Shown one piece after another: positions 1 to 64,000 of a DNA stretch of 64,000 nt (positions within the stretch are counted from its first letter, which is position 1; every line of letters begins with the position of its first letter). The notes beneath the pieces are model-generated. The model made no database searches and was not told where the DNA came from. It worked only from the letters and a program-made list of their open reading frames with translations. Made by a program: the position numbers and the translations under genes. Source of the stretch: a virus; the IMG/VR virus record IMGVR_UViG_3300045988_173816, positions 160,001 to 224,000 of that record, one strand, 5' to 3'.

Positions 1-111
1 TACCGAAAACATAAAGCAGATGAATTTACATCCCGCCAGAATAAATTGATTGCACAAAGTCGTTCCTTTATTTGGATATATTTAATATTCGTAGTAAGTG
101 GTACTTGGTAA
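1..111 (+). CDS. 3' end of an upstream ORF (partial, unknown function)
   Basis: Frame 1 is open from the window edge to TAA at 109-111. Hydrophobic C-terminus (..FIWIYLIFVVSGTW). No start codon in the window. Confidence 0.3.
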   Translation, partial: YRKHKADEFTSRQNKLIAQSRSFIWIYLIFVVSGTW

Positions 112-225
112 GACGTACTGCCCTTTACTACGAATGGTTTATTACGACTCGCACAGGTTGGCTCTAAATCATTTGGTTTAGGGCTTTACTTTCGCTTTGG
201 AAAGATAGAAAGAAGTAGGTTAGAA

Positions 226-2019
226 ATGAACTACGCACAAATTGAAACTTTAGCAAAATATTTAAAAGTTGTAGAAAGCACAAAAGAAGTAGGAGACCTT
301 AAAAACACTCAGTTGTGTTTAACTTACGGTATCCTCGTAAATCCTTTGGAGCCGATTTCTAAGGAGACAGCAGATGCTTTGATTAAACTTTACGGGGTTG
401 ATTTAAGAAACTCTAATGCTACTTTTTATGAGAGCTTCGAAGTTCGTAAAGGTTTAAGTTGGGAAGAAGTGGTATTTGACCGTCTTTGTCATTATGCAAT
501 GACTTACGGTGGGTTGAAAGAGTTTTTTGGTACGGACTTCATTCCTAATTCCGAGGAAAAAGCCTTTCAAACTGCCTTGAATACACATTTAACAACGATT
601 AAAATTAAATCTTACATGGAAGTTCGAGAAGATTTAGGAGTCTTTCTAAATCAACCTTTGGCTTTACCTACAAGTGATATTTCAATCTTGGCAGACTTAG
701 TTGAGCATTATGGTGTAGATATTACTGAGAAAGCTAATAAAGAGCTTCAAATTGAGTTCGGGTATCGCTATAAAGTCGCACCTAAAAACCCAGAGTTGTT
801 AGTTCGTTTGTTGGTTCGTATCTTACTTGGTACAACCGACTATTACAAGAACGCTATGACTTTCAGTCATTTACGCTTTGAAGTGTCACATTTAAGCCAA
901 GACAAGAAAGACTTGATTGTTTCTCTAGTTAAAAACTATGCTTCAAAATATGGTCTTCAACCATTAGCAGACCATTTTCGACCAAACAAGCAGTTGTGGT
1001 TGACCTTGCGCAAACTAGGTCTTCAAAGAGAAGTAAACGCTATGAAGCGCTTGTCTGAGGTTTCTCGTAAAGACCACACCTTTAAAACTCTAATTACTGA
1101 GTTTCCAAAAGATTTGAGCGGTATCACTAATTACCAGTTAATTCGTTACTACAACTATTTAAGTGAATTGCTTGTGTTGGTTGAGGGTGATTACCAAGTT
1201 TATCGTATTCGTAACGGTAAAACTTATGTAAAAGCTCTTAAACACACTCCGATTAGTGGCTTAGAGTACACGTTGGCTAATTTGTACTTGGAGCGTATTG
1301 GAGAAGAGTTCAAGTCTCGCTTTGCAGAAAAAGAGTTGAAATTCTATCAACCAGAAGAGCATATTTCGATTGCACTTCCAACAACTGCTAAGTCTTTCAT
1401 TGGTTCTTACCCTATGTATACTCGTATTGAAGTTCCAGATAACTACCAAATCGGTATTTATTGGAATCAAGATGGTGACTTGGATTTACACGCACAAAGT
1501 GTAGACGGTCGCCACGTTGGTTACTATTCTGAGAACATCAGTGGTGTCACTTACACAGGTGACATGACTTGTCTAAACCGTCAAGGTTTAGCAGCTGAAG
1601 GGTTGTTAATTGAGGGTGTGCAAGGGTTAACCTTTAGTATGAATCCATATAGCCAACTAGGTTCAGATGCTTGTAAGATTTACCTTTCTAAATCTTTGGA
1701 CAAGAAAGCAACTTCTGTTGTAGAAGATGGTTCTCTTTTGTTCCAAGCAAGTATTCCAACAGATAAAGCGATGGTCTTTGCGACTAACGTTGAGGGTGCA
1801 GTAGTTTTAACAAACTTGTCAGTAGGTGGTCGAGTTCCAAATGAACAAGCAAGTGAGAAATTGACTTTAGCAGTCGAGCGTAAGTCACAAACTGCTCTGA
1901 ATTTGAAAGATTTCGCAGACTTTGTAGGTGCTGAATTTGTGGACTCTGTAGAGGAAGCAACACATGACTTCTCTCAACAAGGGGTATCCGTTGCTACTTT
2001 TACGGATTTGTTGGGTTAA
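226..2019 (+). CDS. hypothetical protein with a C-terminal TerD-like region (function tentative)
   Basis: 597-aa ORF with purine-rich RBS (AAGTAGGT) 7 nt upstream. C-terminal IGIYWNQDGDLDLHA...GVTYTGDMT resembles the TerD-family GLGWD / DLDxSA / GDN pattern. Confidence 0.8.
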   Translation: MNYAQIETLAKYLKVVESTKEVGDLKNTQLCLTYGILVNPLEPISKETADALIKLYGVDLRNSNATFYESFEVRKGLSWEEVVFDRLCHYAMTYGGLKEFFGTDFIPNSEEKAFQTALNTHLTTIKIKSYMEVREDLGVFLNQPLALPTSDISILADLVEHYGVDITEKANKELQIEFGYRYKVAPKNPELLVRLLVRILLGTTDYYKNAMTFSHLRFEVSHLSQDKKDLIVSLVKNYASKYGLQPLADHFRPNKQLWLTLRKLGLQREVNAMKRLSEVSRKDHTFKTLITEFPKDLSGITNYQLIRYYNYLSELLVLVEGDYQVYRIRNGKTYVKALKHTPISGLEYTLANLYLERIGEEFKSRFAEKELKFYQPEEHISIALPTTAKSFIGSYPMYTRIEVPDNYQIGIYWNQDGDLDLHAQSVDGRHVGYYSENISGVTYTGDMTCLNRQGLAAEGLLIEGVQGLTFSMNPYSQLGSDACKIYLSKSLDKKATSVVEDGSLLFQASIPTDKAMVFATNVEGAVVLTNLSVGGRVPNEQASEKLTLAVERKSQTALNLKDFADFVGAEFVDSVEEATHDFSQQGVSVATFTDLLG

Positions 2020-2055
2020 TTTAGAGTTACTAAACAGGTAAAGGTTGGTTAAAAT

Positions 2056-2328
2056 ATGCTTAAATATCATGAGTTCGATACTATCTTGAAACAGTTACAT
2101 GAACTTAAAATTTTAGGAGAGATTGAGTTTGTGTATCCAACCTCTGTGAAGGTTGCACCATTCAAAGATAGAGAAGATGGTACTTATGTAGGAATTTTGA
2201 AAGTAGATTGCAATAACAAACCTCGGTATAAGTTATTCAAAGTTGTCTTTAATTGGAGACCTTTGGAACGGAAATCGGACGTTCTCGCTTACATGTGTCG
2301 TTGTTTGATGGATTATGATTTAATGTAG
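2056..2328 (+). CDS. hypothetical small protein
   Basis: 90-aa ORF with AGGTTGGT RBS-like sequence upstream, in series with its neighbours. Confidence 0.65.
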   Translation: MLKYHEFDTILKQLHELKILGEIEFVYPTSVKVAPFKDREDGTYVGILKVDCNNKPRYKLFKVVFNWRPLERKSDVLAYMCRCLMDYDLM

Positions 2329-2339
2329 GGGTAAAAATT

Positions 2340-2771
2340 ATGAGTATTGTAAATGAGCTTTTCGCAGATAGTAAACCACGTTTAGAGAATTTCCAAAATA
2401 CTTATTTTGAAGAATTCTTCAAACGTTCTTCTATCTTGCAATGTTTAAAGCAGATGCGTAGAACAATTGCAGTTTCTAAGAATGGTGAACCTGTTGTTTT
2501 TCGTGATTCCTTTGTTGATTCTTTGGGAAGAGTGCAACATATTTTAGTGACATTTTATATAAATAGTAATAGTACCTACACTCTTGCTATTGACTTGATT
2601 TCAGAAGATTACTATGATTATGGTAAATACGATCGAAGTGGCACTAGAGAAGAAGGTTTCTACTTTACTTTTAGTGAAGTAACTAAGAACTTGCAAGTGC
2701 AGTTTGTAAACCGCGCTAATTGGTTTGATAGAAAAGAAATTCTTCGAGCTTTAGAAATTTTATTTAGTTAA
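2340..2771 (+). CDS. hypothetical protein
   Basis: 143-aa ORF starting 12 nt after the previous stop and followed by a strong terminator. Confidence 0.75.
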   Translation: MSIVNELFADSKPRLENFQNTYFEEFFKRSSILQCLKQMRRTIAVSKNGEPVVFRDSFVDSLGRVQHILVTFYINSNSTYTLAIDLISEDYYDYGKYDRSGTREEGFYFTFSEVTKNLQVQFVNRANWFDRKEILRALEILFS

Positions 2772-2780
2772 CAGTTAAAG

Positions 2781-2810
2781 GTATCCAGCTTCGGTTGGAT
2801 ACTTTTTGTT
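2781..2810 (+). terminator. intrinsic terminator
   Basis: GTATCCAGC-TTCG-GTTGGATAC stem-loop followed by TTTTTGTTT. Confidence 0.85.
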
Positions 2811-2815
2811 TCTAC

Positions 2816-2844
2816 TTGTAATAACTAACTTTTTATGATATACT
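2816..2844 (+). promoter_or_regulatory. sigma-A-type promoter (extended -10)
   Basis: TTGTAA, 17-nt spacer, TGaTATACT. Confidence 0.5.
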
Positions 2845-2873
2845 AAATTCATTAAAGGTTAAGAGGTTTTCAA

Positions 2874-3404
2874 ATGAAATTCAAAGATTTAGACGAACCA
2901 AACAAACTCCAAATTAAATTTCATTATCTATGTAGTTTGCTAGTTGATTTAGTACATAGTTCTGCTGATGATTCACCTTTACAAGTTATATACAACTTAA
3001 GAAAAGTGAAAAATTCTCACACGTTTGTAGAGTTAGATTACTGTGATCCAGACTTTAGGGATATAGTCAAAGTAAGACAAGGTAAGATTTATCAACATAT
3101 TCAGTTGAGACAAACTCCTACAAGTTGGGTGTTAGGTTTCTTTGGCAGCTCTAGTCAATATGAAGATGATTGGATTGAATTTAAGTTAGCAGATATAAAT
3201 GACACTGATGATTTCTATTCGATTGACTTGAATGAAGAACTAAGTTTGATTGCTTATGTTAATTTAGAAACTCCTCTATTCTTAGAATTGGTATCCTTAA
3301 CAGTTTCATTGGCTACAGCTTTGGGTTATTCTCAAAAGAAAATAACACAAGAATTAAACAGATTAACTGTGATTTATAACAATACAAATAAGTTGTGGGT
3401 TTAG
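2874..3404 (+). CDS. small acidic protein, paralogue family A (member 1)
   Basis: N-terminus MKFKDLDEPNKLQIKFHYLCSLLVDL and C-terminal LATALGYSQKKITQEL are shared in pattern with the ORFs at 3419, 4009 and 5140. Confidence 0.85.
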   Translation: MKFKDLDEPNKLQIKFHYLCSLLVDLVHSSADDSPLQVIYNLRKVKNSHTFVELDYCDPDFRDIVKVRQGKIYQHIQLRQTPTSWVLGFFGSSSQYEDDWIEFKLADINDTDDFYSIDLNEELSLIAYVNLETPLFLELVSLTVSLATALGYSQKKITQELNRLTVIYNNTNKLWV

Positions 3405-3418
3405 TTAGAAGGTATTAG

Positions 3419-3994
3419 ATGAGTTACACAGAGTTAAAAACAGAGGATAAAGTATTTCTATCTTTCGCTGCTTTCATGGACTTACTAAGTTTAGGTTTAA
3501 AAGAACCTCACCGATTTTCTGAGTTAAGAGATTTTCAATATGTCTCAACGTTCACCAATGGAGGTTTTGCAGGGGAACAAAATGGAGAATTTTATGATTT
3601 AATTCTATTTCGCTCCAATGGGTTTCCGAAATTGAAAGTTAGTTTATCTTTAGACAACTTTGAGTATTTAGATGTCAGTTTTTGGACTTATAAGCGTGGG
3701 GTATCCAGTGATGAAACTAACTTTTTACTTCCTTTAACTAAGTTAGGTTCTTACGGTGATTGGGATGAGAGCAAACTCCTTACTTATTTGAGAGCCTTTG
3801 AAACAGTTGTCTCTAAGGAATTAGAGTCTTCCTTTGGTATCGGAGTTGGTTTTGATAGTTTATTTGTAAAATTGGCTCACGCTTTAGGTTTTGATAGGGA
3901 CACAATAACACGTGAAGCTGCAACGATTGCTTATTATCTAGGTCAATACAACGAAAAGGTATTGAGGGGTTTAGGTAGTTTTAAAGCTGAATAG
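3419..3994 (+). CDS. small acidic protein, paralogue family A (member 2)
   Basis: MSYTELKTEDKVFLSFAAFMDLLSLG ... LAHALGFDRDTITREA. The family A pattern is present. Starts 15 nt after the previous stop. Confidence 0.85.
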   Translation: MSYTELKTEDKVFLSFAAFMDLLSLGLKEPHRFSELRDFQYVSTFTNGGFAGEQNGEFYDLILFRSNGFPKLKVSLSLDNFEYLDVSFWTYKRGVSSDETNFLLPLTKLGSYGDWDESKLLTYLRAFETVVSKELESSFGIGVGFDSLFVKLAHALGFDRDTITREAATIAYYLGQYNEKVLRGLGSFKAE

Positions 3995-4008
3995 GTTGAG
4001 GTAAAGAT

Positions 4009-4545
4009 ATGGTAAAATACAAAGATTTAAATGAAACAGAAAAGAAAGTAATCAAGTTTGCTTACTTTACAAAATTGTTGGTTATGTTGAGTCGCCTAAA
4101 TGAACGAGATATTCCTTTACATAGGTCTATTACTGCTTATGATAGAGGTTGGACACATTGGAGTGTTGAACGTGCTGATGAATACACACTATATCTTCGA
4201 CTTTACACTAAGAACTCTAATCTTTCTAAGTTTATTTGTCTTAAAGTTCAAGATAGAGAATTATTTGCAGAGTACAAAGCTAATAAACGTGGTTTATCCG
4301 AAAATGAGTCTTTTGTCTATAAAATTGCAGATGTTGTATTTAATGAATATGGGGATGTCGCCTTTGAAAGTACACTAAACTGGCACCTCTTAGCTTATGA
4401 GAGTATGGGTAACGTTCTCTTTGAAGACTTGGTAGATCAAGCATTAAAACTGGCTAAAGATATGAAAATTTCAACTAATGAAATTAACAAAGAACTAGAC
4501 TTCAAAACATATCTTTACGAGAAGTTAGGTTACTTTCGGAAGTAA
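4009..4545 (+). CDS. small acidic protein, paralogue family A (member 3)
   Basis: MVKYKDLNETEKKVIKFAYFTKLLVML ... LAKDMKISTNEINKEL. GAGGT RBS upstream. Confidence 0.85.
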   Translation: MVKYKDLNETEKKVIKFAYFTKLLVMLSRLNERDIPLHRSITAYDRGWTHWSVERADEYTLYLRLYTKNSNLSKFICLKVQDRELFAEYKANKRGLSENESFVYKIADVVFNEYGDVAFESTLNWHLLAYESMGNVLFEDLVDQALKLAKDMKISTNEINKELDFKTYLYEKLGYFRK

Positions 4546-4570
4546 GTATTGAGACAGAAAGAGGTAAAGC

Positions 4571-5128
4571 ATGAGTGATTCTAATTGGATGGGTATCCTC
4601 GGTGGATTTTGGTTGGCAAAGAATATATTAGATGAGGAGTCTCCCACGTCTAACTCAGTTTCAACAGTAAACAATTGTTCTAGTGATGGATTTGTTGAAA
4701 ATATTCCTTATATTCCAGAGAGTGAGGAGTCTCGTGCTCGACACTTTGTACATAGATATGCAACGGATGGTAAAACTGTTTTTACTCAAGATCAATTTTG
4801 TTTATTTATCCATCGATTAGGTGTTGTGTATTTTGTTGGTCAAGATGAAAATGGTCATAATATCTATGATATTCACCCTTGTAGAAAGTCACAGTTAGGG
4901 GAAATTTTAAATCATGGTGTATTTTGGGATGAACCTTTAACTGTGGGTTCTAGGAATAAGTTAGTAGATGAAGTTATTTATAGTTTATCTCGAAGAGGTT
5001 ATCCAATAAACACTTCTAGGTTTCGATTTTTATATAAATTTGATTTAATGGAGAAAGCTTTTCCGAACACTTTTAGATACTTGAGCACAGAAGAATCTTA
5101 CTATCATTGGCGTTCTTTAGGAAATTAG
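4571..5128 (+). CDS. hypothetical protein, paralogue family B (member 1)
   Basis: 185 aa with GAAAGAGGT RBS. LGVVYFVG..IHPC and LSRRGYPINTS...KAFPNTF align with YGVVIRSG..ILPC and LRDNGYNIKSS...KAYPDFI of the ORF at 5718-6146. Confidence 0.8.
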   Translation: MSDSNWMGILGGFWLAKNILDEESPTSNSVSTVNNCSSDGFVENIPYIPESEESRARHFVHRYATDGKTVFTQDQFCLFIHRLGVVYFVGQDENGHNIYDIHPCRKSQLGEILNHGVFWDEPLTVGSRNKLVDEVIYSLSRRGYPINTSRFRFLYKFDLMEKAFPNTFRYLSTEESYYHWRSLGN

Positions 5129-5139
5129 GGGATAAATAA

Positions 5140-5721
5140 GTGTTATATAAAGATTTAGATGAAAGAACAAAAGAGTTAGTTAAGTTCGCAGATTTCTTAA
5201 CACGTTTAGTTGTAATAGCAAAGTCGAATTACTTAGCTTTAATGCAAGCTTTCCCGGATAAACAGATTAAGAAGAACTGCTTTGTTTTCTCTTATGACAA
5301 GTTGGGTTACATCTTAACTTATTACAAACCATCAGGTGTATTAGGGTATCAACTTAAACTGTTCCGAACTACTGCAAAGACTGAGTTTAGAACAAACAGT
5401 AAAAACTATCAAAATACTGCTAACTTAACTGTGAATGTCAATTCTCGCATGAAAGGTAAGTCCTATGAGTTACAGTTTGCAGAGGGTGATGGTAATGGTG
5501 GTTGGCTCTTTGAAGAGTTAGACCCTATTACAGATTTATGTTGGTTGGGTGAGCTTTACAATGATTTAACTTGGTTCGGTAGAACTTATGATTCAGAAGA
5601 AGCTTTATTAGAGTTAATTCAGAAAAGTTATTATCCATTAGCTAAACAGTTAGGTTTTTCTCGAATTGAGTATAACGCAAGTTTGCGGGTCGTGGCTAAG
5701 AAATTGAGGTGTTTATCATGA
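5140..5721 (+). CDS. small protein, paralogue family A (member 4)
   Basis: GTG start. MLYKDLDERTKELVKFADFLTRLVVIA ... LAKQLGFSRIEYNASL. Confidence 0.8.
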   Translation: MLYKDLDERTKELVKFADFLTRLVVIAKSNYLALMQAFPDKQIKKNCFVFSYDKLGYILTYYKPSGVLGYQLKLFRTTAKTEFRTNSKNYQNTANLTVNVNSRMKGKSYELQFAEGDGNGGWLFEELDPITDLCWLGELYNDLTWFGRTYDSEEALLELIQKSYYPLAKQLGFSRIEYNASLRVVAKKLRCLS

Positions 5722-6146
5722 GTTTATCAGATTTAGTTATGTTAGGTGCTATTCGGAATCATTACAATGAAGATTTCTCAAAGTCTTCAAATTCAAGTTC
5801 TTTTGATTATTTGGGGGATTCTTCAAATAAAGGTATTTATATTGATAAGACATACTTTTTTGTTGAAGGTTATGGTGTAGTTATCCGAAGCGGAAGCACT
5901 TTTATGATTTTACCATGTTCGCGAGATAATTATACAACTATAGTAGATAATGCGGCTTGTTTCCATAAAAGTGATTCTGACTGTATTTATGGTGACCCTA
6001 AGTCGGATATTTTACTTTACCTTAGAGATAATGGGTATAATATAAAATCTTCGGATTTATTACGTTTAAGTATTCCTGCAATCTTTAGAAAAGCCTATCC
6101 AGACTTTATCGTTCACAACGGTTACGCAGAATATGTAGGGGAATAA
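5718..6146 (+). CDS. hypothetical protein, paralogue family B (member 2)
   Basis: The track ORF starts at GTG 5709. ATG 5718 is preferred because it lies 9 nt after GAGG. Overlaps the previous stop. Confidence 0.75.
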   Translation: MSLSDLVMLGAIRNHYNEDFSKSSNSSSFDYLGDSSNKGIYIDKTYFFVEGYGVVIRSGSTFMILPCSRDNYTTIVDNAACFHKSDSDCIYGDPKSDILLYLRDNGYNIKSSDLLRLSIPAIFRKAYPDFIVHNGYAEYVGE

Positions 6147-6151
6147 TAACA

Positions 6152-6180
6152 AACCAAAGCTACTTGCTTTGGTTTTCTTC
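6152..6180 (+). terminator. intrinsic terminator
   Basis: AACCAAAGC-TACTT-GCTTTGGTT followed by a T-rich tail. Confidence 0.8.
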
Positions 6181-6209
6181 TTGCATTTTTCTTGTAGCAG
6201 TGCTATAAT
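6181..6209 (+). promoter_or_regulatory. sigma-A-type promoter
   Basis: TTGCAT, 17 nt, TATAAT. Confidence 0.6.
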
Positions 6210-6265
6210 AAAGTCAATCTTACACATAAGTAAGTTAAATTAAGTGTAAACAAAGGATTTCTATT

Positions 6266-7219
6266 ATGAAAAAGATTAAATTACTCTCGGTATCCGCTTT
6301 ATCTATCCTAGCTCTTGGGTTTGGAACACAAGTAGCACACGCAAGTATTCAAACTGACACGATTGATGAGAAATGGGGCAAACCCACTTTGGTTTATGGT
6401 GGTAGCTTGACTGACTCTCAGGTTGAGGAAGTAAACAAGTCCTTTAATATTTCTGATGTTGCAAACGTTAAGCGCCAAGTTGTTTCTGATGCTGACTACG
6501 TTAAGTATATGAATGAACCAAACGCTAATGGTTTATCTTTGATTTCATCTACCTTGGTTGCCAAACAAGATAAAGGTAAAGGTATTACAGTCAAGATTGT
6601 AACCCCAGATAATATTACGCGTGTAACTGAGACACAATATCGCAACGCTGCGATTACGGCAGGTGCAACAGATTTGGCGATTGAAGTTTCTGCTCCAGTA
6701 AAAGTAACTGGTGAATCAGCTTTGGTTGGTGTTTCTAAAGCGTTGGAAGCGAATGGTCAAGAAATTGATGCCAAACGAACTGAGCTTGCAAATGAGGAGA
6801 TTTCAACAACCGCTCAAATTGCAGAAGCAAATAAAGATACCAAAGGTTTTGACAGTCAATTGTTAGATAATGCTTTAATTCAGATTAAGACTGAGTTAGC
6901 TAAAGAAAAACAAAACAAGGGTCAAGTTGCTGATGATAATAAAGTAGAGAAGATTGTTAAGAAAGCTCTTAAAGACAATAAACTTGATGATATTATCTCA
7001 GAGGATCAAGTGTCTCAGTTGGTTCAATTTGCCAAAGGGTATCAGTCTACATCTGCGGTTGACTCTAAAGAAGTATTGAATCAACTAGGTGATTTGAAAG
7101 ATGCTATTTCTGAGGGGGTAGGTAAGTTCTTGAAGTCTGCTGAAGAGCATGGTGTGTTTGAGAAAGCGGTTGATTGGGTTAAATCTTTGTGGGAATCTTT
7201 AGTTAGTGCTTTCCACTAA
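6266..7219 (+). CDS. secreted protein, possibly DUF1002-like
   Basis: Signal peptide MKKIKLLSVSALSILALGFGTQVAHA. The mature N-terminus ..EKWGKPTLVYGGSLTDSQVEEV resembles extracellular DUF1002 proteins of Firmicutes, recalled from memory and not searched. Confidence 0.8.
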   Translation: MKKIKLLSVSALSILALGFGTQVAHASIQTDTIDEKWGKPTLVYGGSLTDSQVEEVNKSFNISDVANVKRQVVSDADYVKYMNEPNANGLSLISSTLVAKQDKGKGITVKIVTPDNITRVTETQYRNAAITAGATDLAIEVSAPVKVTGESALVGVSKALEANGQEIDAKRTELANEEISTTAQIAEANKDTKGFDSQLLDNALIQIKTELAKEKQNKGQVADDNKVEKIVKKALKDNKLDDIISEDQVSQLVQFAKGYQSTSAVDSKEVLNQLGDLKDAISEGVGKFLKSAEEHGVFEKAVDWVKSLWESLVSAFH

Positions 7220-7242
7220 TTACAGTTTAAGGGTTTAAGTTT

Positions 7243-7377
7243 ATGAATTTCATAACTGTGTTATGTTTAGGTTTTCTCCTTGGTTTAATTCTAAAATTGG
7301 TTAAGAAAAGCTTTCGTTTTATATTTTTTGTTGTAGTGGTTTTTGCACTAGTTGCATACCTTTTACAAATCCTATAA
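7243..7377 (+). CDS. small hydrophobic membrane peptide (44 aa)
   Basis: Absent from the track because it is shorter than 60 aa. ATG 7243, sequence MNFITVLCLGFLLGLILKLVKKSFRFIFFVVVVFALVAYLLQIL, stop 7375-7377, then a terminator. Confidence 0.5.
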   Translation: MNFITVLCLGFLLGLILKLVKKSFRFIFFVVVVFALVAYLLQIL

Positions 7378-7384
7378 AATCAGT

Positions 7385-7413
7385 AAGTCAAGGGTATCCA
7401 CTCTTGACTTTTT
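7385..7413 (+). terminator. intrinsic terminator with GGTATCCACT loop
   Basis: AAGTCAAG / CTTGACTT 8-bp stem, 10-nt loop, T-run. Confidence 0.8.
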
Positions 7414-7432
7414 GTTTGGTTTGTGGTAAAAT
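7404..7432 (+). promoter_or_regulatory. sigma-A-type promoter whose -35 box lies in the terminator's 3' arm
   Basis: TTGACT (7404-7409), 17 nt, TGgTAAAAT. Confidence 0.6.
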
Positions 7433-7467
7433 ATACTTCATTGAATGAAGAAGTAGGAGGAAACTTT

Positions 7468-8640: not shown

Positions 8641-8702
8641 TTTAAACTAAGTAGTAACTAAAACTTATTATATTAGGTTTCTGCCACTAGTTGAAAAAAA
8701 AA

Positions 8703-8736
8703 ATGGAGTTAGACGAAAAATCTTGACTCCATTTTA
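8703..8736 (+). terminator. probable terminator (A-run / hairpin / T-run)
   Basis: ATGGAGT ... ACTCCAT stem with a 15-nt loop, flanked by A10 upstream and TTTT downstream. Confidence 0.5.
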
Positions 8737-8751
8737 AATTTATGTTAAACT
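8723..8751 (+). promoter_or_regulatory. sigma-A-type promoter (extended -10) for the adhesin gene
   Basis: TTGACT (inside the hairpin's 3' side), 17 nt, TGtTAAACT. Confidence 0.55.
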
Positions 8752-54589: not shown

Positions 54590-54629
54590 AAAACTAATAA
54601 TTAAATTTGAGATTTTAGGAAGTGAAACT

Positions 54630-57258: not shown

Positions 57259-57273
57259 GATAGGTGGTTTTAG

Positions 57274-57924
57274 ATGATTGGTTTGATTTTTGGTTCAAGT
57301 AGTGAGAGTTTAGTAAAAACTTTAAATGAGTCTCATGGTTTGAAAGATATTGAGGGTTTTAATTCGATTGGTTCATTTTTAAGTGCTGCTAATCGAAAAG
57401 CTCTTCGTTGTGAACGGTTGGTGATTAACTGTGTAGCAGTAGGTTCCCCTCAAGAATTTCGAAATTTGCGTAATTATTTGTTGAATCATTTAAGGACAAC
57501 AGAAGTTGTTTTATTTGGTCGCTATTTTGAACCTATGGATTTAGAGGTTGTAGATTCCTTTTATGCTGAGTTTTCAGAACCTATTTATACAGATTACTTA
57601 TTACAAGCAGACGAACAAGCGAATGTAGACTTAGTAGCAAATACCTTATGTAAAGGTTCTTTAGATGATATCCGTTTGAATCATTCAAGTCGCAAAGGTA
57701 AGAAAGCAGTTGTTCGGTATGGTTCAGAACCTACAAGCTCTAAACAAAAGGTAGACATGGGGTTCACTCCACCTAAACCGATAACTGCAAATGGTGGAGT
57801 AGTTAAAACTTTTAGTTTTGGTGGGCGATTCTTTGGAAAGAATAAGTTAACTAAAGCAGAACTCCAAAGGGTATCTTTACTAGAAAGGGAAGCTTCTGTA
57901 GTGTTGCAGTTGCTAAACGGTTGA
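57274..57924 (+). CDS. hypothetical protein
   Basis: 216 aa with TAGGTGGT RBS. Confidence 0.8.
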   Translation: MIGLIFGSSSESLVKTLNESHGLKDIEGFNSIGSFLSAANRKALRCERLVINCVAVGSPQEFRNLRNYLLNHLRTTEVVLFGRYFEPMDLEVVDSFYAEFSEPIYTDYLLQADEQANVDLVANTLCKGSLDDIRLNHSSRKGKKAVVRYGSEPTSSKQKVDMGFTPPKPITANGGVVKTFSFGGRFFGKNKLTKAELQRVSLLEREASVVLQLLNG

Positions 57925-57930
57925 TAAAGA

Positions 57931-59142
57931 GTGGATTATATTTTAACGACAAAACCTGTGAAATATTCAGGTTATGAAGTTGTTTCGAGCATTTCAGACA
58001 TAGGTCGTTTAACCATGAAGTCTGTATTGATTGTTGAGTCTTATACAGATAGGGATTTTGATTTTGCAGTATTTCTGTTAAATGCTTTAAGAGACACATC
58101 ATTAACTAAGTTGGCTTACATATCGGAGAACCCCAGTCGTATCCTTTTAGAGATTATGCGAACAGTTGGTGCTTTTGTAACTCAAGACAGTAGTTTAATT
58201 GATACAACTGAGCAATTTTCTGAGTTATTGGAATATTTGATGACGAATAAGGTTTCAACTTATTCTGAGGAGTTGGATGATTTAGCAGATAGTTTCACCA
58301 CACAAGATACTTATATTCGGGAGAAATTAGAGAGTGAGCCTAAGATTGTACAGCGTAAAATTTTGATGGCTCATGAGAAAGTAAGTGATGCCTTACAGAA
58401 CGTTGTTTTTTCTGAGGATTTGAATAGAGAGTTACAAAGTTTTTTACTAACGGCTTCAAGTAAGATTAAGGTTGGAGAAGAAGAGTTAGAAAAGAAAGAG
58501 AAAGAGTTAGACTCTGTTAGAAACTCTGGTTTTGGTGGGTTTGGTTCGATTAACGCTTATACTCAGTTTAGTTACACAGGTAACTCTAAAGTCTTGATTA
58601 TTAAAGAAGAGTCTCCAACTCGTTATCTCACTTCGTTTTTGGTTAGTTATATTGATTGGCTCACTAGAGTGCCAGAGTTGAATGCAAAGCTTTTAATTAT
58701 TGATAAGGATAGTGACTTTATTGATACTCGGTATAAGTCTTTGAAGAAGGCAGACTCTCAAACAATTGTAAGTAACTCTTCTACCTTGTATTTGGTTCCA
58801 GTCATTTATACAACAACACCTACTCAGAGTGTGATGAGTAATTTAATGTCACCAGTAACTGATTTATATGTCATTTTAGATAGAACCTACAAAAGAACTT
58901 TACCGGTATCTGGTCGTGGAATTTCTACCGTTTATAGTTTATCGAGCAGACGGCTGATGCGAGAGTTAGGTTTAAACTCTGAAGATGTAATTGTAAATGA
59001 TTTAGGGGAGCAGACTCAGTTGGGTGTATTAGCTCAGATTGAAGGTTACGCTATTGATGAGGGTTCTCGAATTTTGCAACAACAAAGTGCTTTTGAACCA
59101 ATTATGAAGCGTTTAACTGTTAAAGCAGGTTTTAACATTTAG
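57931..59142 (+). CDS. hypothetical protein
   Basis: 403 aa from GTG 57931, which has a poor RBS. An alternative ATG at 58015 follows TAGGTCG. Confidence 0.7.
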   Translation: MDYILTTKPVKYSGYEVVSSISDIGRLTMKSVLIVESYTDRDFDFAVFLLNALRDTSLTKLAYISENPSRILLEIMRTVGAFVTQDSSLIDTTEQFSELLEYLMTNKVSTYSEELDDLADSFTTQDTYIREKLESEPKIVQRKILMAHEKVSDALQNVVFSEDLNRELQSFLLTASSKIKVGEEELEKKEKELDSVRNSGFGGFGSINAYTQFSYTGNSKVLIIKEESPTRYLTSFLVSYIDWLTRVPELNAKLLIIDKDSDFIDTRYKSLKKADSQTIVSNSSTLYLVPVIYTTTPTQSVMSNLMSPVTDLYVILDRTYKRTLPVSGRGISTVYSLSSRRLMRELGLNSEDVIVNDLGEQTQLGVLAQIEGYAIDEGSRILQQQSAFEPIMKRLTVKAGFNI

Positions 59143-59156
59143 GTGAGGGTTAGGTT

Positions 59157-61337
59157 ATGTTTACAAAAAAAGATAAAAAGGTGACGAACCTTTCCCAAAG
59201 TTCGTTAGAAAGTCAGAAGACAAAAGAAAATCAAGAAAAACGTAAGGGTTTTCTTGATAAGTACATTGATTTGATTAAGATGTGGGACTCGGTCTACGAC
59301 GAGTACCGTTCTCGTTACAATCCAGAGCGAGCTTTAGCTTCAAATAGGCGCTTGTACATGGACTCTAACTTCACTTATAGTAAGACTCAAAATGTAACTG
59401 CTTATTATGTCATTGAGGAGTTACCTCCAGAGTTTGAGTTGGGGTATCGAGCTTCACTGCGTTCGATTGTACCAGAAGGTATTTCCATGAACTTCATTGA
59501 AGATAATGAGCCTTATGAAATTAACTGGGACGACCCTAAAGTAAAAACTCGTTTGTCGGTACTGGATGAAGTAAGTGTGAAGAACCAAGAAGAGTCTAGT
59601 AAGGGTTCTAGGTTTACTCAACATAAGTATGTAAAAACAGCTCAAAAAGATGAGCGTTTATCGATTTCTGTGGAATATGCTAATGATGCGACTTTGAGTG
59701 ACCAAGATAAGCGTTACTTATACAAGGTTCGTATTATGGTTATTATCACAGGTCGAAGAGGTCCAGAGTTTACAGATGTGTTGAAAGACTTTGAGCACAT
59801 GTGTGACCAACGAACTGGGTTTAGAGTTCGTAGGGTAACTGGCACTATTGCAGATACTATGGGGGATTTCTCACCTTTTAACTCAGAAATGTCTAAGGAG
59901 AGTAAACGTAAAATTCGCTCTACTTTCACTTCTGATGAGTTAAGAGCACAGTGGCACCCATTTGAGCAGGGTATCGTTGGTTTTGGTACGACTTACTTAG
60001 GTACAAATATTGAAACTCACTCTCCAGTTTTCCACCAATTTAAACGTGACGTTACAGATGCTGAGATTGTAATTGTAATTGGTATGTCTGGGTCTGGTAA
60101 GTCGTTTGAAATGAAGATGTTAGCTACACAGTTTGCAGCTAATGATAATATGATTATGACTATCAATGACTATGAAGGTGGAGAATACAAAGGTCTAGGT
60201 CAATTGCTTGCTGAAGATTTCCAAGTTGTTTCGTTGGATTTGGGAATGGGTTCAGGTCGTTACCTCGACCCAGTTCCGATTGTTCCAACTGGTGATGAAG
60301 AAATGGACAATACCTTGTTTACTCGTTCTCGTAAGAATATTATTGACTTGTTCAGAGCAGTAGCTGGTTTGGAAACCTTGAAGAAGTACGCTTGGATTCC
60401 TTTAATTATTGAGCGTGGGGTTGACTTGTTTTATAGTAACTATGGGGTATCGATTGACCCTCAAACGTGGCACGCGCTAGAGGGTTGCTCTATTTATACA
60501 GTATATGAGTATTTGAAAAAATATCGTCCGAATTTAGATGATGTTTTAAACTCTATTACTGAGGAAGATAAAAATATTTTAAGTGAAGAAGATATTAAAG
60601 AGTTGTACAAAGACGCTTTAAAAGACTTTCAAAAAGACTATCTTTATTTCTTGGAAACCTTTGGTTCTTATTTTGAAAAAAGTAAGAAGTTGAACAACTA
60701 CTTTAAATATCCGATTTACTTAAAGGATATTATTGATGCAAAATTAGTTATTTGTGACTATAACATGCGTGGGGTTCCAGAAAGTCAGTTGTCTGAATTG
60801 GATGCTATTCTTATTCCTATGAATGCAGCAACTGTAGCTTATTACCGTACTGTGTATCCTTTCTCACGTGGTCTTTACAATGTGAAGATTTGGGAGGAGT
60901 TGCAACGTTTCAGCTCTCTTCCAAATGCAGTAGAGATTTTGAAAACTCCAATCACAGGGGGTCGTAAAGCAGGTGATATTAACATTGTTGCTTCCAATGA
61001 TCCAGTTAAATTGGTTGAAAAAGATGAGTTCTCCTTGTTTGCTAACTACACATTAGCAATGGTTGGTAAGATTAAGTCCCCAGTTTATCAAGAGATTGTA
61101 TGCAAGGCTCTCGGTATCACTGATTTAGCTGATGAATTAGCCGAGATTGGTTCTGTTATCGAAGAGGATGAGGGTTTGACTGCGGGTTATGATGAGGTTC
61201 ATGCAGAACCTTATAAGAAAGCCTTTGTTTTGAAATTGAACTCTGGGGAATCTTCAGTTGTAAAAGCAGACTTACCTCGTGCTTTAAGTGATACTCCACT
61301 CTTCAAGACCGGTGTGATTGCGCAAGACAAACAGTAA
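59157..61337 (+). CDS. VirB4/PrgJ-like T4SS ATPase
   Basis: 726 aa. Walker A VIGMSGSGKSFEMK. Its size and its position next to the coupling protein are typical of Gram-positive VirB4 homologues. Confidence 0.8.
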   Translation: MFTKKDKKVTNLSQSSLESQKTKENQEKRKGFLDKYIDLIKMWDSVYDEYRSRYNPERALASNRRLYMDSNFTYSKTQNVTAYYVIEELPPEFELGYRASLRSIVPEGISMNFIEDNEPYEINWDDPKVKTRLSVLDEVSVKNQEESSKGSRFTQHKYVKTAQKDERLSISVEYANDATLSDQDKRYLYKVRIMVIITGRRGPEFTDVLKDFEHMCDQRTGFRVRRVTGTIADTMGDFSPFNSEMSKESKRKIRSTFTSDELRAQWHPFEQGIVGFGTTYLGTNIETHSPVFHQFKRDVTDAEIVIVIGMSGSGKSFEMKMLATQFAANDNMIMTINDYEGGEYKGLGQLLAEDFQVVSLDLGMGSGRYLDPVPIVPTGDEEMDNTLFTRSRKNIIDLFRAVAGLETLKKYAWIPLIIERGVDLFYSNYGVSIDPQTWHALEGCSIYTVYEYLKKYRPNLDDVLNSITEEDKNILSEEDIKELYKDALKDFQKDYLYFLETFGSYFEKSKKLNNYFKYPIYLKDIIDAKLVICDYNMRGVPESQLSELDAILIPMNAATVAYYRTVYPFSRGLYNVKIWEELQRFSSLPNAVEILKTPITGGRKAGDINIVASNDPVKLVEKDEFSLFANYTLAMVGKIKSPVYQEIVCKALGITDLADELAEIGSVIEEDEGLTAGYDEVHAEPYKKAFVLKLNSGESSVVKADLPRALSDTPLFKTGVIAQDKQ

Positions 61338-61358
61338 GATAGTTTAGGTGATTTGAAC

Positions 61359-61532
61359 ATGATATTATTAAGTTTAGTGCTTTTTCTAGGAGGTATCCTT
61401 TGGGGAGTTTCAAACTCTATAACCTCTGAGAAGTTAAAAGAAGAGGTTAAGAAGAGTCGTTTCCTCGTAATTGGGGTAGGTGTGGTCTATGTTTTAGTAG
61501 TCCTTGCAACAACGTTAGAAGGGAAACACTAA
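61359..61532 (+). CDS. small 2-TM membrane protein (57 aa)
   Basis: Not in the track. TAGGTGA RBS. MILLSLVLFLGGILWGV...FLVIGVGVVYVLVVLATTLEGKH. TAATG overlap with the next gene. Confidence 0.6.
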   Translation: MILLSLVLFLGGILWGVSNSITSEKLKEEVKKSRFLVIGVGVVYVLVVLATTLEGKH

Positions 61533-64000
61533 TGGATTGGCGAAATTCAAATGATGATTTAACGAGACAATCAGATGCTCGAAGGGAGCGAGAAAATCAA
61601 CCTTTTGAAAATGGGATTAGAGATAGAGACTCAGGGGGTTTCGGCGGTATGCGCCAAGGTCCAGGTGGCGACCCTTTAGCTCGTATGAGAGGTGCGCAAC
61701 CTGACCCTTTTGCAAATCGAGTAGGTGGAGGTTTACCTCCTAGACAACCGTTTGGACAACCTCAAGGGTATCCACAACAAAACCAACCCCCTCAACATTT
61801 GAGTCAACATGAAGATTGGATGGATAAAACTTTTAAAGTAGTTACAGGTTTGTGGAAACATTTAACTTCTTATGTGTGGCCTGTCTTGTCTGAGTCTGAT
61901 GATATGTTCAGAAGTGACTACAAACTAAGAAAAGGGTTAACTGCTGCTCTCTTCTATTATGGTGCAGTAGGTGGGTTCTCTTTCTTGTTTGGTTTGTTTA
62001 CGAAGTTTGCAACTGCACCAGTTATTTTCGTATCTCTTGTAGGCGGTGGAGCGAGTGGTGGTATTTTCTTGTATAAGAACTCTCAGAATAAGGAGTGGGG
62101 GTTGATTGATGACTCTCCAAAGGAAGAGACTTACCCTCAAGCACCTCAACCGTCAGAGTTTGGCGCTCCAAGGGGTTTTATGGATGATGGTTTTGGTTCT
62201 CCAAATTCTAATCCTATGGGTGATTTTGGACAACCTCCAAGAAGAGAAATTCCAAATGAATTTAGAAACTTTGGTTCAAGTGGTGGTTGGGATGATGAAG
62301 AGGAAGAACCTCCATTTCCCAAAAGACAAGGTTTTGAACCTATGATGAAACCAAATCCTACTCCATTTGATGATTTGGAAGAAGATGATTTAGAAACTCC
62401 TTCCAAGGGTATCCCCTTAAAAGGCGCAAGCGCTAAGGATATTTGGGGGAGCATAGACGATTCTGAAGATGATTTAGAAGATGAAACAGAAGAGACAGAG
62501 GGTAATTCAAATAGTTCCAGAGAAGAATTAGAGAATCCTAAAGTTGAAGAAGTTTCCGAAAGTGCATTTAGTGCAGATTTAGCAGGTGGTATCGTTGAAC
62601 CAGAGTTAGTTTCCCGTAGACTTCTTGTAGATAAGTATTTATCTCTTTTAGACGGTTCTAGCTTAAAACCTGATTGGTCTCGTGAGGTTCCAGAAGATAG
62701 TGTAGAGTTTAAACAATTAGAAACATTCCTTCGAGACGCCCAAACAGGTGGAGTTAAAGGTTTGTCTGAGATGGATTGGGTTAATGTGAAGTCTATTACA
62801 GAGCGAGTGTCTGTATTTGAGATTATTACTGATCGTCCAGAGAAATTAAAAGGTAAAGAAACTCTCTTTGCAAAAGAGATTACAGAGTTGCTGAAAGACC
62901 AAATGAAGGGTTATTTTGGAGATAATGTAACCACTACTGCAGTTGGTAAAGGTAGTCGTATTGCAATTACTATCTTTAAGCAAACAGGTACTTCCTTTAT
63001 GTTGAGAGATTTGATTGAGTCGAGTAAAGATTTCTTCTTAGACACGAAAAATGAACTTCCAGTTGTATTCGGAGCTGATGAATATGGAGAACCGATTCTT
63101 CTTGATTTAGCAAAACACACAGGTACAATTATTGCAGGGATGGCTCGAACAGGGAAGTCTGTTCTTGCTACGGGTATCGTTAATCAAATGATGGCTTTAA
63201 ACTCTCCTCGTAAGGTTCAAGTCGTAGCTGGTGATATGAAAAACAAAGACTCTGACTGGTATCAGATTACCTTACCTCACTTGCGTAAGTTTGCAACAGG
63301 TACAAAAGCGATTATGGACTTGCTTGATTGGGTTGTATCTGAGGAAGCCCCAAGAAGAAAGAGATTGATTGGTGACCAGTTGAAAATTCAAAACTACAAT
63401 GCGAATTGTTCGGATGAGTCTGAGCAGTTGCCTTACTTATTTGTAGTGTTGGATGAAATTATTTCTTTTGCTGAGAAGTTAGACAAAGATGAAAAAGCAG
63501 TGTATAAAGCTTATTTGAGTGAAATTTTAACTGCTTTCCCTAATGTCGGTATCTTCTTAATTTTCGTACCTCATCAACTACACAATGATTACTTCCCTAA
63601 AACGGCTTCTCGTATGGTGGGGAATAGATTTGCAGTTAAGGCAGGTCAACCAATTCAGAAAACGATTTGGGAAGACTCTTATCGTCAAATTGACTTCCCA
63701 ACCACCAACACAGGTGACTTTGCTTACACTCTCGCTGGGTCTGATGAGCCTAAGTTCGGTCACGCTCCTTTGATTATGAGCATGAGTGGTGGTAAAGAGC
63801 GTTTAGATAAGTTGTATGAAACTCAGCGTAAAATGTGGACGAAGTTATACCCAGAAGAAGCAGCTACATCTGCTTATGTCACTCGTTTGAAAAATGAGCA
63901 GGCAAGTGCAACGTTAGGTAAGCTCGGTATTCCAGTTTCGGACACGGATTTCGCAGAAGAAGACTCTTTACGTTTTCCTAAGTCTAATACAAGTAATGTA
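61532..64000 (+). CDS. FtsK/SpoIIIE-family (TcpA-like) type IV coupling protein, 3'-truncated by the window edge
   Basis: Frame open from ATG 61532 to the window end, which is why it is absent from the track. Low-complexity G/P/Q N-terminus, TM pair (ALFYYGAVGGFSFLFGLF..VIFVSLVGGGASGGIFL), Walker A IIAGMARTGKSV, Walker B YLFVVLDE. Confidence 0.85.
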   Translation, partial: MDWRNSNDDLTRQSDARRERENQPFENGIRDRDSGGFGGMRQGPGGDPLARMRGAQPDPFANRVGGGLPPRQPFGQPQGYPQQNQPPQHLSQHEDWMDKTFKVVTGLWKHLTSYVWPVLSESDDMFRSDYKLRKGLTAALFYYGAVGGFSFLFGLFTKFATAPVIFVSLVGGGASGGIFLYKNSQNKEWGLIDDSPKEETYPQAPQPSEFGAPRGFMDDGFGSPNSNPMGDFGQPPRREIPNEFRNFGSSGGWDDEEEEPPFPKRQGFEPMMKPNPTPFDDLEEDDLETPSKGIPLKGASAKDIWGSIDDSEDDLEDETEETEGNSNSSREELENPKVEEVSESAFSADLAGGIVEPELVSRRLLVDKYLSLLDGSSLKPDWSREVPEDSVEFKQLETFLRDAQTGGVKGLSEMDWVNVKSITERVSVFEIITDRPEKLKGKETLFAKEITELLKDQMKGYFGDNVTTTAVGKGSRIAITIFKQTGTSFMLRDLIESSKDFFLDTKNELPVVFGADEYGEPILLDLAKHTGTIIAGMARTGKSVLATGIVNQMMALNSPRKVQVVAGDMKNKDSDWYQITLPHLRKFATGTKAIMDLLDWVVSEEAPRRKRLIGDQLKIQNYNANCSDESEQLPYLFVVLDEIISFAEKLDKDEKAVYKAYLSEILTAFPNVGIFLIFVPHQLHNDYFPKTASRMVGNRFAVKAGQPIQKTIWEDSYRQIDFPTTNTGDFAYTLAGSDEPKFGHAPLIMSMSGGKERLDKLYETQRKMWTKLYPEEAATSAYVTRLKNEQASATLGKLGIPVSDTDFAEEDSLRFPKSNTSNV

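Follow-up and report, generated by a model that had tools for sequence, protein, structure and literature searches.

A dense, evenly spaced and strand-polar GGTATC array in a giant pXO16-like element: a possible set of priming sites

Only a few cis-acting signals are known that extend over whole bacterial genomes, among them the FtsK-orienting polar sequences (KOPS), the SpoIIIE recognition sequences (SRS) and Chi, all of which are read by host machines. KOPS and SRS are short, G-rich, strand-polar and over-represented words that occur irrespective of reading frame, and Chi, the signal of RecBCD and AddAB, is an over-represented word of 5–8 nt that is co-oriented with replication and read as single-stranded DNA. 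The DNA uptake sequences (DUS) of Neisseria and the uptake signal sequences (USS) of Pasteurellaceae occur about once per kb, are selected with turnover of their positions and are in part located in terminator hairpins. The ops element of RfaH is present once per long operon, in the 5′ leader, while the sites of T7 gp4 and of DnaG (CTA/TTA, CTG), read on the lagging-strand template by a zinc-binding domain, are 3–5 nt long, frequent by chance and not arranged in polar arrays. Here we describe an array of the hexamer GGTATC in a 64,000-nt stretch of DNA (positions 160,001 to 224,000 of IMG/VR record IMGVR_UViG_3300045988_173816; hereafter the window, meaning the whole stretch analysed). The window is part of a roughly 230–280 kb element that carries all genes on one strand and occurs in many human-associated metagenomes. 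As judged from its proteins, it belongs to a superfamily around pXO16, of which it is a distant relative; pXO16 is a 350-kb conjugative plasmid of Bacillus thuringiensis sv. israelensis without a known relaxase or origin of transfer (oriT) (PMC6199540, PMC9673590).

The GGTATC word resembles KOPS and SRS in being short, G-rich, polar, over-represented and independent of frame, and in that an FtsK-family ATPase is encoded by the element, but it is 10–20 times denser, evenly spaced, element-specific and directed one way round the circle, and no gamma domain was detected in the ATPase. Chi is likewise short, over-represented and oriented; however, it is host-owned and genome-wide, whereas the present word varies between elements and has a polarity of 30:1 to 130:1, far above that of typical Chi. 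With DUS and USS it shares the density, the positional turnover and the occasional location in terminator hairpins; by contrast, these sequences occur in both orientations and often as inverted pairs, while the present word shows strand ratios of 98:3 in the window and 734:18 in its relatives. Unlike ops, the word is present at many sites, which lie in open reading frames (ORFs) and are evenly distributed. Its core GG(G)TA is laid out like a T7 primase site, with a run of G followed by T and by a 3′ base whose copying is optional, although the primase domains are here located on separate polypeptides.

On the + strand of the window GGTATC was counted exactly 98 times, which corresponds to about one copy per 650 bases, while the reverse word GATACC occurs three times. 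The position directly upstream of the word is occupied by G in 47, C in 37, T in 11 and A in three copies (G or C in 84 of 98), the position directly downstream by C in 39 and T in 27 (C or T in 66 of 98), and the flanks beyond hold no information; this flat profile excludes a hidden longer repeat or the footprint of a mobile element as the source of the array. The heptamers that include one flanking base are confined to the + strand (CGGTATC 37:0, GGGTATC 47:0, GGTATCC 39:0). The strand consists of 31.7% A, 31.8% T, 21.7% G and 14.8% C, its GC skew is about +0.19 in every 2-kb bin, and all credible ORFs of the window lie on it. The initial annotation, a manual reading of the sequence, had reported at least 98 copies; 94 of its coordinates are exact and four are displaced by ten bases (true starts 761, 1120, 33567 and 61767). 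Some of its other counts need correction: it had found GATACC only twice, overlooking the copy at 6836, had put the one-base control word GGTATT at about 45–50 copies, of which there are 59, and had seen 13 copies of GCGGTATC, of which there are 14. Its further observations, namely that C is the rarest base, that the flanks favour (G/C)GGTATC(C/T), that the word is read in all three frames and that it recruits otherwise disfavoured C-ending codons, all agree with the counts given here, as does its view of the word as a polar signal on one strand that is selected as nucleic acid, which is now supported by a codon-aware null, codon context, even spacing and conservation with turnover.

Markov models of orders 0–3 predict 8–25 copies of GGTATC in place of the 98 observed, and with z = 21.8 in the order-2 model it is the most exceptional hexamer of the window, the next unrelated word, CTGAGG, reaching z = 10.7. 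GGTATC ranks seventh among hexamers by frequency, though it contains the rarest base, and clear enrichment is not seen for any of the 18 hexamers that differ from it by one mismatch, indicating that the exact word is under selection. Shuffling synonymous codons within each gene, which keeps the protein and the per-gene codon usage, gave 18.5 ± 3.9 copies (maximum 31 in 500 shuffles) compared with 87 observed within genes (z ~17), and permutation of whole codons gave 11.6 ± 3.2, so that the enrichment is reproduced neither by the Markov null nor by the synonymous shuffle, both of which the initial annotation had proposed as checks. Within genes the word is used in all three reading frames (43/28/16). 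ATC accounts for 12.7% of isoleucine codons overall and for 44% (32/72) directly after GGT, and TCC rises from 6% of serine codons to 36% (25/70) after GTA. Codon usage and amino-acid composition are excluded as the cause by both shuffles and by these codon-context counts, and selection on the array acts at the level of the DNA or nucleic acid and not on the protein. The reverse word, seen three times and expected 5.4 ± 2.1 times from the shuffle, is not significantly below the null. The asymmetry of 98:3 thus results from a roughly 5-fold enrichment on the + strand and not from avoidance on the − strand. Avoidance of one orientation, of the kind expected with Type III restriction, is excluded as the main cause, since the − strand is depleted neither in the window nor in pXO16.

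The gaps between successive copies have a mean of 652 bases, a minimum of 85 and a maximum of 1741, with a coefficient of variation (CV) of 0.51. With random placement the CV is 0.98 ± 0.10 and the largest and smallest gaps average 3335 and 7 bases, and none of 20000 simulations was as even as the window. The three longest gaps lie in or beside the adhesin gene, the 889-aa ORF downstream of it (14355–17024) and a solo TnpB gene: the gap 9907–11552 falls inside the adhesin gene, the gap 13027–14768 starts there and runs into the 889-aa ORF, and the gap 16959–18533 holds most of the TnpB gene. The DNA at these gaps looks like the latest acquisitions of the window. Two IS607 insertions with a lower density of the word had been described initially. 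One of them is indeed an IS607-type unit, while the other is a TnpB gene without an adjacent recombinase, and the four GGTATC copies inside the two are still far above background.

Almost all copies (94 of 98) are located inside ORFs, and with merely four intergenic sites a promoter role is excluded. All four had been assigned to terminator-type hairpins. This holds for the sites at 2780 and 7393, which form the 5′ arms of terminator-like hairpins, whereas those at 31818 and 45798 are placed in the loop or stem region of weaker hairpins. In the hairpin around site 2780, G·U wobble pairing in the 3′ arm means that no reverse copy of the word is made. A relation to the BciVI site GTATCC, to which 45 of the 98 sites extend (45:3; 39 as GGTATCC), was rejected because relatives favour T or A at position +1. 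A second over-represented word, CTGAGG or TCTGAGG, has 44 copies where about ten are expected, and 11 on the other strand (e.g. at 1055, 7110, 25578 and 46314); it is nearly always in the frame xCT-GAG-Gxx, and its excess is probably an effect of codon-pair context and not a second signal.

Relatives of the window were found through its VirB4-like protein, which has homologues with 82–96% identity on many metagenome contigs of 230–300 kb and on 22 contigs in IMG/VR, the longest of 278 kb (sampled loci are given L numbers below); the same gene order, circularly permuted, is found on one contig of 232 kb. No near-identical record was found by megablast of the window against plasmids and phages, no match by a GTDB genome scan with the VirB4-like protein or by exact look-up of one window protein, and unrelated phages only by an IMG/VR profile scan with a PolA alignment. 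Among sequenced plasmids, pXO16 gives the best match to the VirB4-like protein, 94% of which aligns with 33% identity. In pXO16 and the window family the VirB4-like gene is followed in the same order by genes for an FtsK-like protein, an unknown protein, SpoVG, an SNF2 helicase and a replication module. A tblastn comparison of pXO16 proteins with window-family loci revealed many common proteins with 21–40% identity, including PolA, a DnaB-like helicase, a CHC2 zinc-finger protein with its RuvC-like neighbour, a Toprim_2 protein, ligase, a ParB-HNH protein, a UvrD-like helicase, ParM, an AAA+ ATPase and a 412-aa transfer protein; for the replication set (PolA, DnaB-like, CHC2, Toprim, ligase and ParM) identity is 22–40%. 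The two have in common the one-strand genes, the transfer block, SpoVG, the SNF2 helicase, the replication set, ParM, large LPXTG-type adhesins and a dense one-strand word, but differ in protein sequence, in size (230–280 kb compared with 350 kb), in the word itself (SGGTATC compared with WGGGGTAK) and in the host, which for the window element is human-associated and possibly belongs to the oral Bacillota. Genes in a single direction and a transfer block of VirB4-like, FtsK-like and cell-wall hydrolase genes in conserved order were found in the window element, which on these sequence grounds appears conjugative-plasmid-like and is known from metagenome contigs alone. The contigs are filed as viral in IMG/VR; transfer and replication genes were seen on them, and no virion genes. 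Membership in Inocle, giant elements of oral Streptococcus with two replichores, a switch of ORF orientation and GC skew, and about 32% or 24% GC (PMC12340149), is not supported, given that the window family has 36–39% GC and one polarity in every sampled region. Three further giant IMG/VR contigs (L121, L123 and L125; 129–213 kb, 31–33% GC) have a very strong GC skew of 0.30–0.35; in L123 and L125 the only polar word is a mild one, TAGTGGT(G), with a strand ratio of about 22:1 per 21 kb, L121 has none, and the three may represent a different giant-element family.

Within the window family the polarity of the word was found wherever it was sampled. Loci of 22 kb each contain GGTATC at 39:0 (L001) and 53:2 (L002), and the 22 IMG/VR loci together at 734:18 in 457 kb, with CVs of 0.42–0.74; the 10 kb to the right of these loci hold 367:14, and the 10 kb to the left of the window hold the word on the + strand only. 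Distant parts of three contigs, reached through copies of the insertion sequence (IS; 28–49 kb of a 251-kb, 148–169 kb of a 245-kb and 164–185 kb of a 232-kb contig), show the same polarity, with 26–40 copies against 0–4. The window family is therefore one-stranded all round, as far as sampled. Upon alignment of orthologous regions, site positions are common to relatives 2–4 times more often than neutral decay predicts, while about half of the sites differ in place among relatives with equal density. This turnover of sites with kept density is stabilising selection on coverage.

Between branches the word changes around a fixed core, GG(G)TA. Loci from four samples with VirB4-like proteins 51–58% identical to that of the window (L074–L077) use GGGTATC (31:0, 46:0, 49:1 and 34:0 per 22 kb). 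In pXO16 (NZ_CP013277.1) the word is WGGGGTAK, and GGGGTA occurs 657 times on the + strand and five times on the − strand of the complete 349,600-bp circle, at 12–27 copies per 10 kb everywhere and with the same polarity all round; about 45% of the sites read GGGGTAG. The spacing is again even (CV 0.71, random 1.00 ± 0.04; largest gap 2071), the GC skew stays positive along the entire circle, and the + strand encodes every one of the 455 annotated features, which are the coding sequences (CDS) of the PLSDB gene table with pseudogenes and RNA genes left out. The five reverse copies compare with 5–11 expected, indicating no active avoidance. Two relatives of pXO16 found via the zinc-finger protein (L060 and L061; 55–67% identity) carry GGGGTAT at 37:0 and 31:0. 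A 76-kb contig with a pXO16-type transfer protein (L126, IMGVR_UViG_3300045988_186543), which surfaced only through sharing a distant TnpB, shows an extended form of the word, t(C/A)AGGGGTA(G/T)tt; in 21 kb of it AGGGGTAG was counted at 41:0. The words by branch are therefore WGGGGTAK (pXO16), GGGGTAT (L060/L061), CAGGGGTAG (L126), GGGTATC (L074–L077) and SGGTATC (window). No exceptional word was detected in 135 kb of a 215-kb Bacillus velezensis plasmid (NZ_CP076292.1; L034, L073 and L128) whose VirB4-like protein is 23% identical; it carries genes for VirB4-like, SNF2, DnaB-like, CHC2, Toprim, PolA and ParB-HNH proteins and has a few minus-strand genes. Two ORF-free regions were noted in pXO16. 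At 220,200–220,650 (L058:20200–20650), within a 1.7-kb ORF-free stretch, about 20 tandem 21-bp iterons form a block without the word that falls in one of the longest gaps (220189–222009) and is a candidate replication origin or centromere at about 220.3 kb. At 162,886–167,324 (L057:12886–17324), 4.4 kb with dense direct and inverted repeats of 40–60 nt and no Rfam match keep the normal GGGGTA density (8 copies).

A host-wide word is not supported by the other replicons compared. In pBtic235, from the same B. thuringiensis strain as pXO16, GGGGTA occurs at 6:1 in 45 kb of co-directional genes. Copies of the IS607-type insertion that are at least 84% identical were found on a contig binned with a Gemella metagenome-assembled genome (L003) and on two giant IMG/VR contigs of 234–244 kb and 33–34% GC (L114 and L115), and outside the IS these contigs have merely 1–3 GGTATC in about 19 kb, i.e. 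no enrichment. The initial annotation had proposed comparing the element with other DNA, and the outcome is an element-specific word, missing from the other replicons and drifted in the relatives. Since the word is missing from these four replicons, it probably belongs to the element, with a reader that is most likely element-encoded. The IS copies hold 2–3 GGTATC at fixed offsets (−274, +721 and +1020 from the TnpB start), even in the replicons that otherwise lack the array, all 13 copies in window-family contigs (among L107–L119) are co-oriented with the array, and TnpB relatives at 42–53% identity have zero GGTATC. The IS lineage thus seems to have evolved within these elements, and the replicons seem to have hosts in common. 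Gemella is no more than a hint at the host, as the L003 contig itself resembles mobile DNA.

Any explanation has to cover an exact word of 6–9 nt, its near-absolute strand restriction round the circle, a spacing that provides coverage with a limit of about 2 kb, selection at the DNA level, element specificity, slow drift round a fixed core and the lack of exclusion from the opposite strand. We favour, at a probability of roughly 0.37, the reading that the array represents priming sites on the lagging-strand template or the transferred strand, which are read by the T7-like replisome of the element. Priming had been among the roles offered initially and is the best supported of these, via a T7-like replisome with a DnaG-type zinc-finger protein. 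The words would be cis-acting signals on the strand that is always copied discontinuously, namely the lagging-strand template of a unidirectionally replicating plasmid with co-directional genes. The same strand would probably enter the recipient single-stranded during conjugation, and an incoming single strand of 250–350 kb would need repeated priming. A DnaB-like helicase would travel 5′→3′ along the + strand, so that a split primase of the DnaG/T7 type, with its CHC2 zinc-finger and Toprim_2 parts on two stand-alone proteins, could recognise the word in single-stranded DNA. The core 5′-GG(G)TA-3′ would template a primer starting with pppACC (pppACCC in case of GGGTA), the 3′ A being the uncopied “cryptic” base as in 5′-GGGTC-3′ of T7, and a PolA-type polymerase would extend the primer. 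Because a site of 6–9 nt is too rare by chance, selection would have written one site per ~0.5–0.65 kb, at most about 2 kb apart and on one strand only, and the word would drift together with its reader between branches of the superfamily. The direction of the fork, the strand transferred and the primase as reader are what we infer here, and the G-rich, coding + strand is the lagging-strand template only if forks and genes run the same way.

Several observations are consistent with priming. In pXO16 the word is confined to one strand without a switch of GC skew or gene orientation, which fits a single, permanently discontinuous strand. The plasmid is reported to transfer single-stranded DNA, and plasmids mobilised by it need an intact, correctly oriented single-strand origin (PMC6199540). 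The window family encodes a DnaB_C helicase (L062:13903–15504), a CHC2 protein (L062:17854–18480) and a Toprim_2 protein (L116, about 2550–3380), pXO16 has the same set, and both encode a family-A polymerase and a ligase besides; none of the helicase, CHC2 and Toprim_2 genes is located inside the window itself. The profile of the stand-alone CHC2 protein matches the zinc-binding domains of DnaG/primase structures 2au3 and 1d0q. The CHC2 gene is always followed by a gene (L062:18480–19412; pXO16 34318–35193) for a protein with a RuvC/RNase H-like motif pattern (GLDxSKxSTG ... E ... QDQLD), for which neither Pfam nor a PDB sequence search gave a match. The template trinucleotide of DnaG and T7 primases is set by their zinc-binding domain, which can act in trans on the catalytic domain, and the T7 mutant H33A shifts recognition from GTC to GTA or GTG (PMC2978363). 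Directly before its third zinc ligand the zinc-finger protein has H in the pXO16 branch but N in the window family, at a site that may correspond to the specificity position of T7.

Other findings weigh against a role in priming. The B. velezensis relative has the DnaB-like, CHC2, Toprim and PolA genes but no array, so the replisome alone does not require one, and the presence or absence of replisome genes fails as a discriminator. In T7 itself, the primase sites, 5′-(G/T)(G/T)GTC-3′ (PMC12839067), are neither polar nor evenly arrayed (161 vs 159, CV 0.92), so that T7 provides no precedent. Known primase sites comprise 3–5 nt, whereas the word is 6–9 nt or longer (9–11 nt in L126) and about 5-fold above the codon-aware null, so that a primase site of this length under genome-wide selection, if it is one, would be atypical. 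Finally, the polarity of the word cannot be disentangled from gene orientation and GC skew, which makes a role in transcription or at the RNA level inseparable from one in replication; minus-strand genes, which were sought to separate the two, amounted to one spurious low-complexity ORF.

Among the alternatives, an orienting or loading word for a DNA translocase, either the FtsK/SpoIIIE-type coupling protein or the neighbouring SNF2-type helicase, is unlikely. Such a word would keep export or segregation one-way, or allow engagement anywhere without a classical oriT, following the logic of KOPS/SRS or of Streptomyces TraB and clt. It would suit a G-rich and polar word and a plasmid such as pXO16, which mobilises oriT-less plasmids and chromosomal DNA without an identified relaxase or oriT (PMC9673590, PMC6199540), and the block of VirB4-like, FtsK-like, unknown protein, SpoVG and SNF2 helicase is kept in all word-bearing branches checked (L126 was not among these). 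However, Pfam gives only the motor domain at E<0.01 for full-length FtsK-type homologues, the protein stops soon after this domain, and a PDB sequence search matched only the FtsK motor and the TcpA-type coupling protein, so that the C-terminal gamma (winged-helix) domain that would read such a word was not detected by sequence. Together with the absence of two arms converging on a dif-like site, the full circle of pXO16 having one polarity, this weakens the proposal of a KOPS-like word made in the initial annotation. In addition, single-stranded DNA, which pXO16 reportedly moves, is polar already, KOPS-type words are about 10–20 times sparser and not known for even spacing, and the B. velezensis relative has an FtsK-type gene and no word. 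Dispersed strand-specific nick or entry sites seem less likely still. An element nuclease, e.g. the candidate ParB_N-HNH protein encoded beside the ligase, would cut the + strand at the word, leaving 3′ ends from which strands could be displaced and 5′ ends that could be exported, which would explain the missing oriT of pXO16, a plasmid likewise without a known relaxase, and the absolute polarity. Such sites would be comparable to the nicks that phages T5 and tf carry on one strand. The nuclease and ligase are kept in pXO16, in L060 and L061 and in the window family. The ParB-HNH protein is also present, without the word, in the B. velezensis relative. Moreover, a single site would suffice for entry, leaving the even spacing of about 0.5 kb unexplained, and hundreds of nicks would endanger a circle of 250–350 kb.

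A signal in transcription or RNA is improbable, though the word polarity equals gene orientation everywhere, so that GGUAUC would be present on the non-template strand and in nearly every mRNA. It could recruit an ops-like elongation or anti-termination factor, or mark transcripts for an RNA-binding protein such as SpoVG. The core resembles ops of Escherichia coli, GCGGTAGC, with which the copies of GCGGTATC in the window and the GGGGTAG sites of pXO16 may be compared. SpoVG belongs to a family of sequence-specific nucleic-acid-binding proteins, and in pXO16, the window family and L074–L077 (L126 was not checked) its gene adjoins that of the FtsK-type protein, whereas sampling of 135 kb of the B. 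velezensis plasmid, which lacks the word, did not reveal it; with this single contrast SpoVG is a lead as reader. The ops-like role suggested initially is weakened by the location of the sites, which are spread evenly within ORFs and not placed in operon leaders, and by the lack of an annotated NusG, RfaH or LoaP paralogue among the 455 pXO16 features, and the normal density across the 4.4-kb ORF-free stretch of pXO16 also argues against a message in RNA. Least probable is a Chi-like protective word that switches a helicase-nuclease of host or element from degradation to repair on broken, linear or rolling-circle DNA. The word is short, over-represented, co-oriented with the presumed direction of the fork and distributed genome-wide, as Chi is, and among the proteins of the element are helicases, UvrD-like and others, and several nucleases. 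Yet a word that the other replicons tested do not share and that differs between related elements does not act as Chi for an enzyme of the host. AGCGG, the Chi of B. subtilis, is only mildly skewed in pXO16 (83:51), and no AddAB- or RecBCD-like pair is annotated on pXO16.

The features of the window are collected in the table. Proteins were annotated by Pfam, and most of those that are not listed have no Pfam family. The AAA+ ATPase has 36% identity to the pXO16 AAA ATPase encoded at 327133–328428, and orthologues of the 403-aa protein at two family loci (L035:8764–9975 and L002:8762–9967) are about 21–29% identical to the pXO16 protein at the equivalent position. A run of ORFs at 2874–5721, each of about 180 aa and weakly alike (24% identity, E = 1e-5), recalls the paralogue arrays of pXO16.

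Table. Position of the word array and of annotated features in the 64,000-nt window.
Feature	Position	Strand	Remarks
GGTATC array, consensus (G/C)GGTATC(C/T)	328..63553	+	exact count
GGTATC starts, part 1	328, 761, 1120, 1983, 2780, 3290, 3700, 3836, 4592, 5345, 6289, 7038, 7393, 8012, 8359, 9141, 9907, 11552, 12114, 12648, 13027, 14768, 15173, 15648, 15870	+	
GGTATC starts, part 2	16460, 16959, 18533, 19542, 20020, 20500, 20675, 21176, 21602, 22307, 22735, 22964, 23779, 24930, 25747, 26020, 27094, 27508, 28198, 28746, 30053, 31394, 31818, 32545, 33072	+	
GGTATC starts, part 3	33567, 34629, 35148, 35737, 36627, 37097, 38163, 38461, 38910, 39609, 40355, 41564, 42559, 42858, 43698, 44078, 45104, 45798, 46114, 46662, 47501, 48582, 49058, 49330, 49862	+	
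GGTATC starts, part 4	50984, 51789, 52765, 53901, 54174, 54903, 55307, 55780, 56170, 57198, 57870, 58905, 59443, 59970, 60446, 61113, 61392, 61767, 62408, 62588, 63173, 63258, 63548	+	
Reverse copy (GATACC on +)	6836..6841	−	exact count
Reverse copy (GATACC on +)	10189..10194	−	exact count
Reverse copy (GATACC on +)	22950..22955	−	14 bases upstream of forward site 22964
Terminator-like hairpin	2777..2806	+	5′ arm holds GGTATCC; 3′ arm is GGATACT
DUF1002 protein	6266–7219	+	Pfam
LPXTG antigen I/II-family adhesin	8782..14073	+	Pfam; word density below average
Solo TnpB (IS605-family OrfB), without adjacent recombinase	17743..18966	+	in long gap 16959–18533
Clamp-loader-like AAA+ ATPase (DNA_pol3_delta2)	35950..37323	+	Pfam
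HU-like protein	40017–40511	+	Pfam
IS607-type insertion (MerR-serine recombinase and TnpB)	41255..43040	+	co-oriented with the array; three GGTATC
CHAP/GDSL cell-wall hydrolase, transfer locus	51634..53811	+	Pfam
403-aa protein directly upstream of VirB4-like gene	57931..59142	+	position equivalent to pXO16 344874–346112
VirB4-like/DUF87 ATPase	59157..61337	+	33% identical to pXO16 homologue; anchor for finding relatives
FtsK/SpoIIIE-family ATPase (coupling-protein-like)	61532..64000	+	reaches window end

No described system that matches the array was found in the literature searched, in agreement with the initial annotation: reviews that cover pXO16 in detail and the Inocle paper (PMC12340149) make no mention of such a word array, and full-text searches for the words and the concept retrieved no prior description, although a mention in the primary pXO16 papers is not excluded. 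The phenomenon itself is that of a polar over-represented word; this one differs in its ownership by a mobile element, in a density higher by an order of magnitude, in its even spacing and in its drift between related elements. In contrast to KOPS, SRS and Chi, it is private to the element, and its density, evenness and drift imply a co-evolving, element-encoded reader. Whatever this reader is, the array would be the first reported genome-wide cis-element array this dense that is plasmid-encoded and plasmid-read. It is tentatively proposed that the giant plasmids of this superfamily, conjugative and one-directional, rely on a private “priming code”, in which a split primase needs a word of 6–9 nt that has been written every ~0.5 kb into the one strand copied discontinuously, at the fork as well as after entering a recipient as a single strand. 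If this were true, complementary-strand synthesis would be self-specific and host-independent, and the word would co-evolve with its zinc-finger reader (GGGGTAK, GGGGTAT, GGGTATC, SGGTATC). In practice, the word may serve as a signature by which contigs can be recognised, binned and oriented and by which DNA that has passed through these elements, such as the IS lineage by which the word reaches other replicons, can be spotted. The array provides a testable handle on pXO16, which moves 350 kb quickly without a known relaxase or oriT, and bears on the replication and spread of widespread elements of about 250 kb in human-associated microbiomes.

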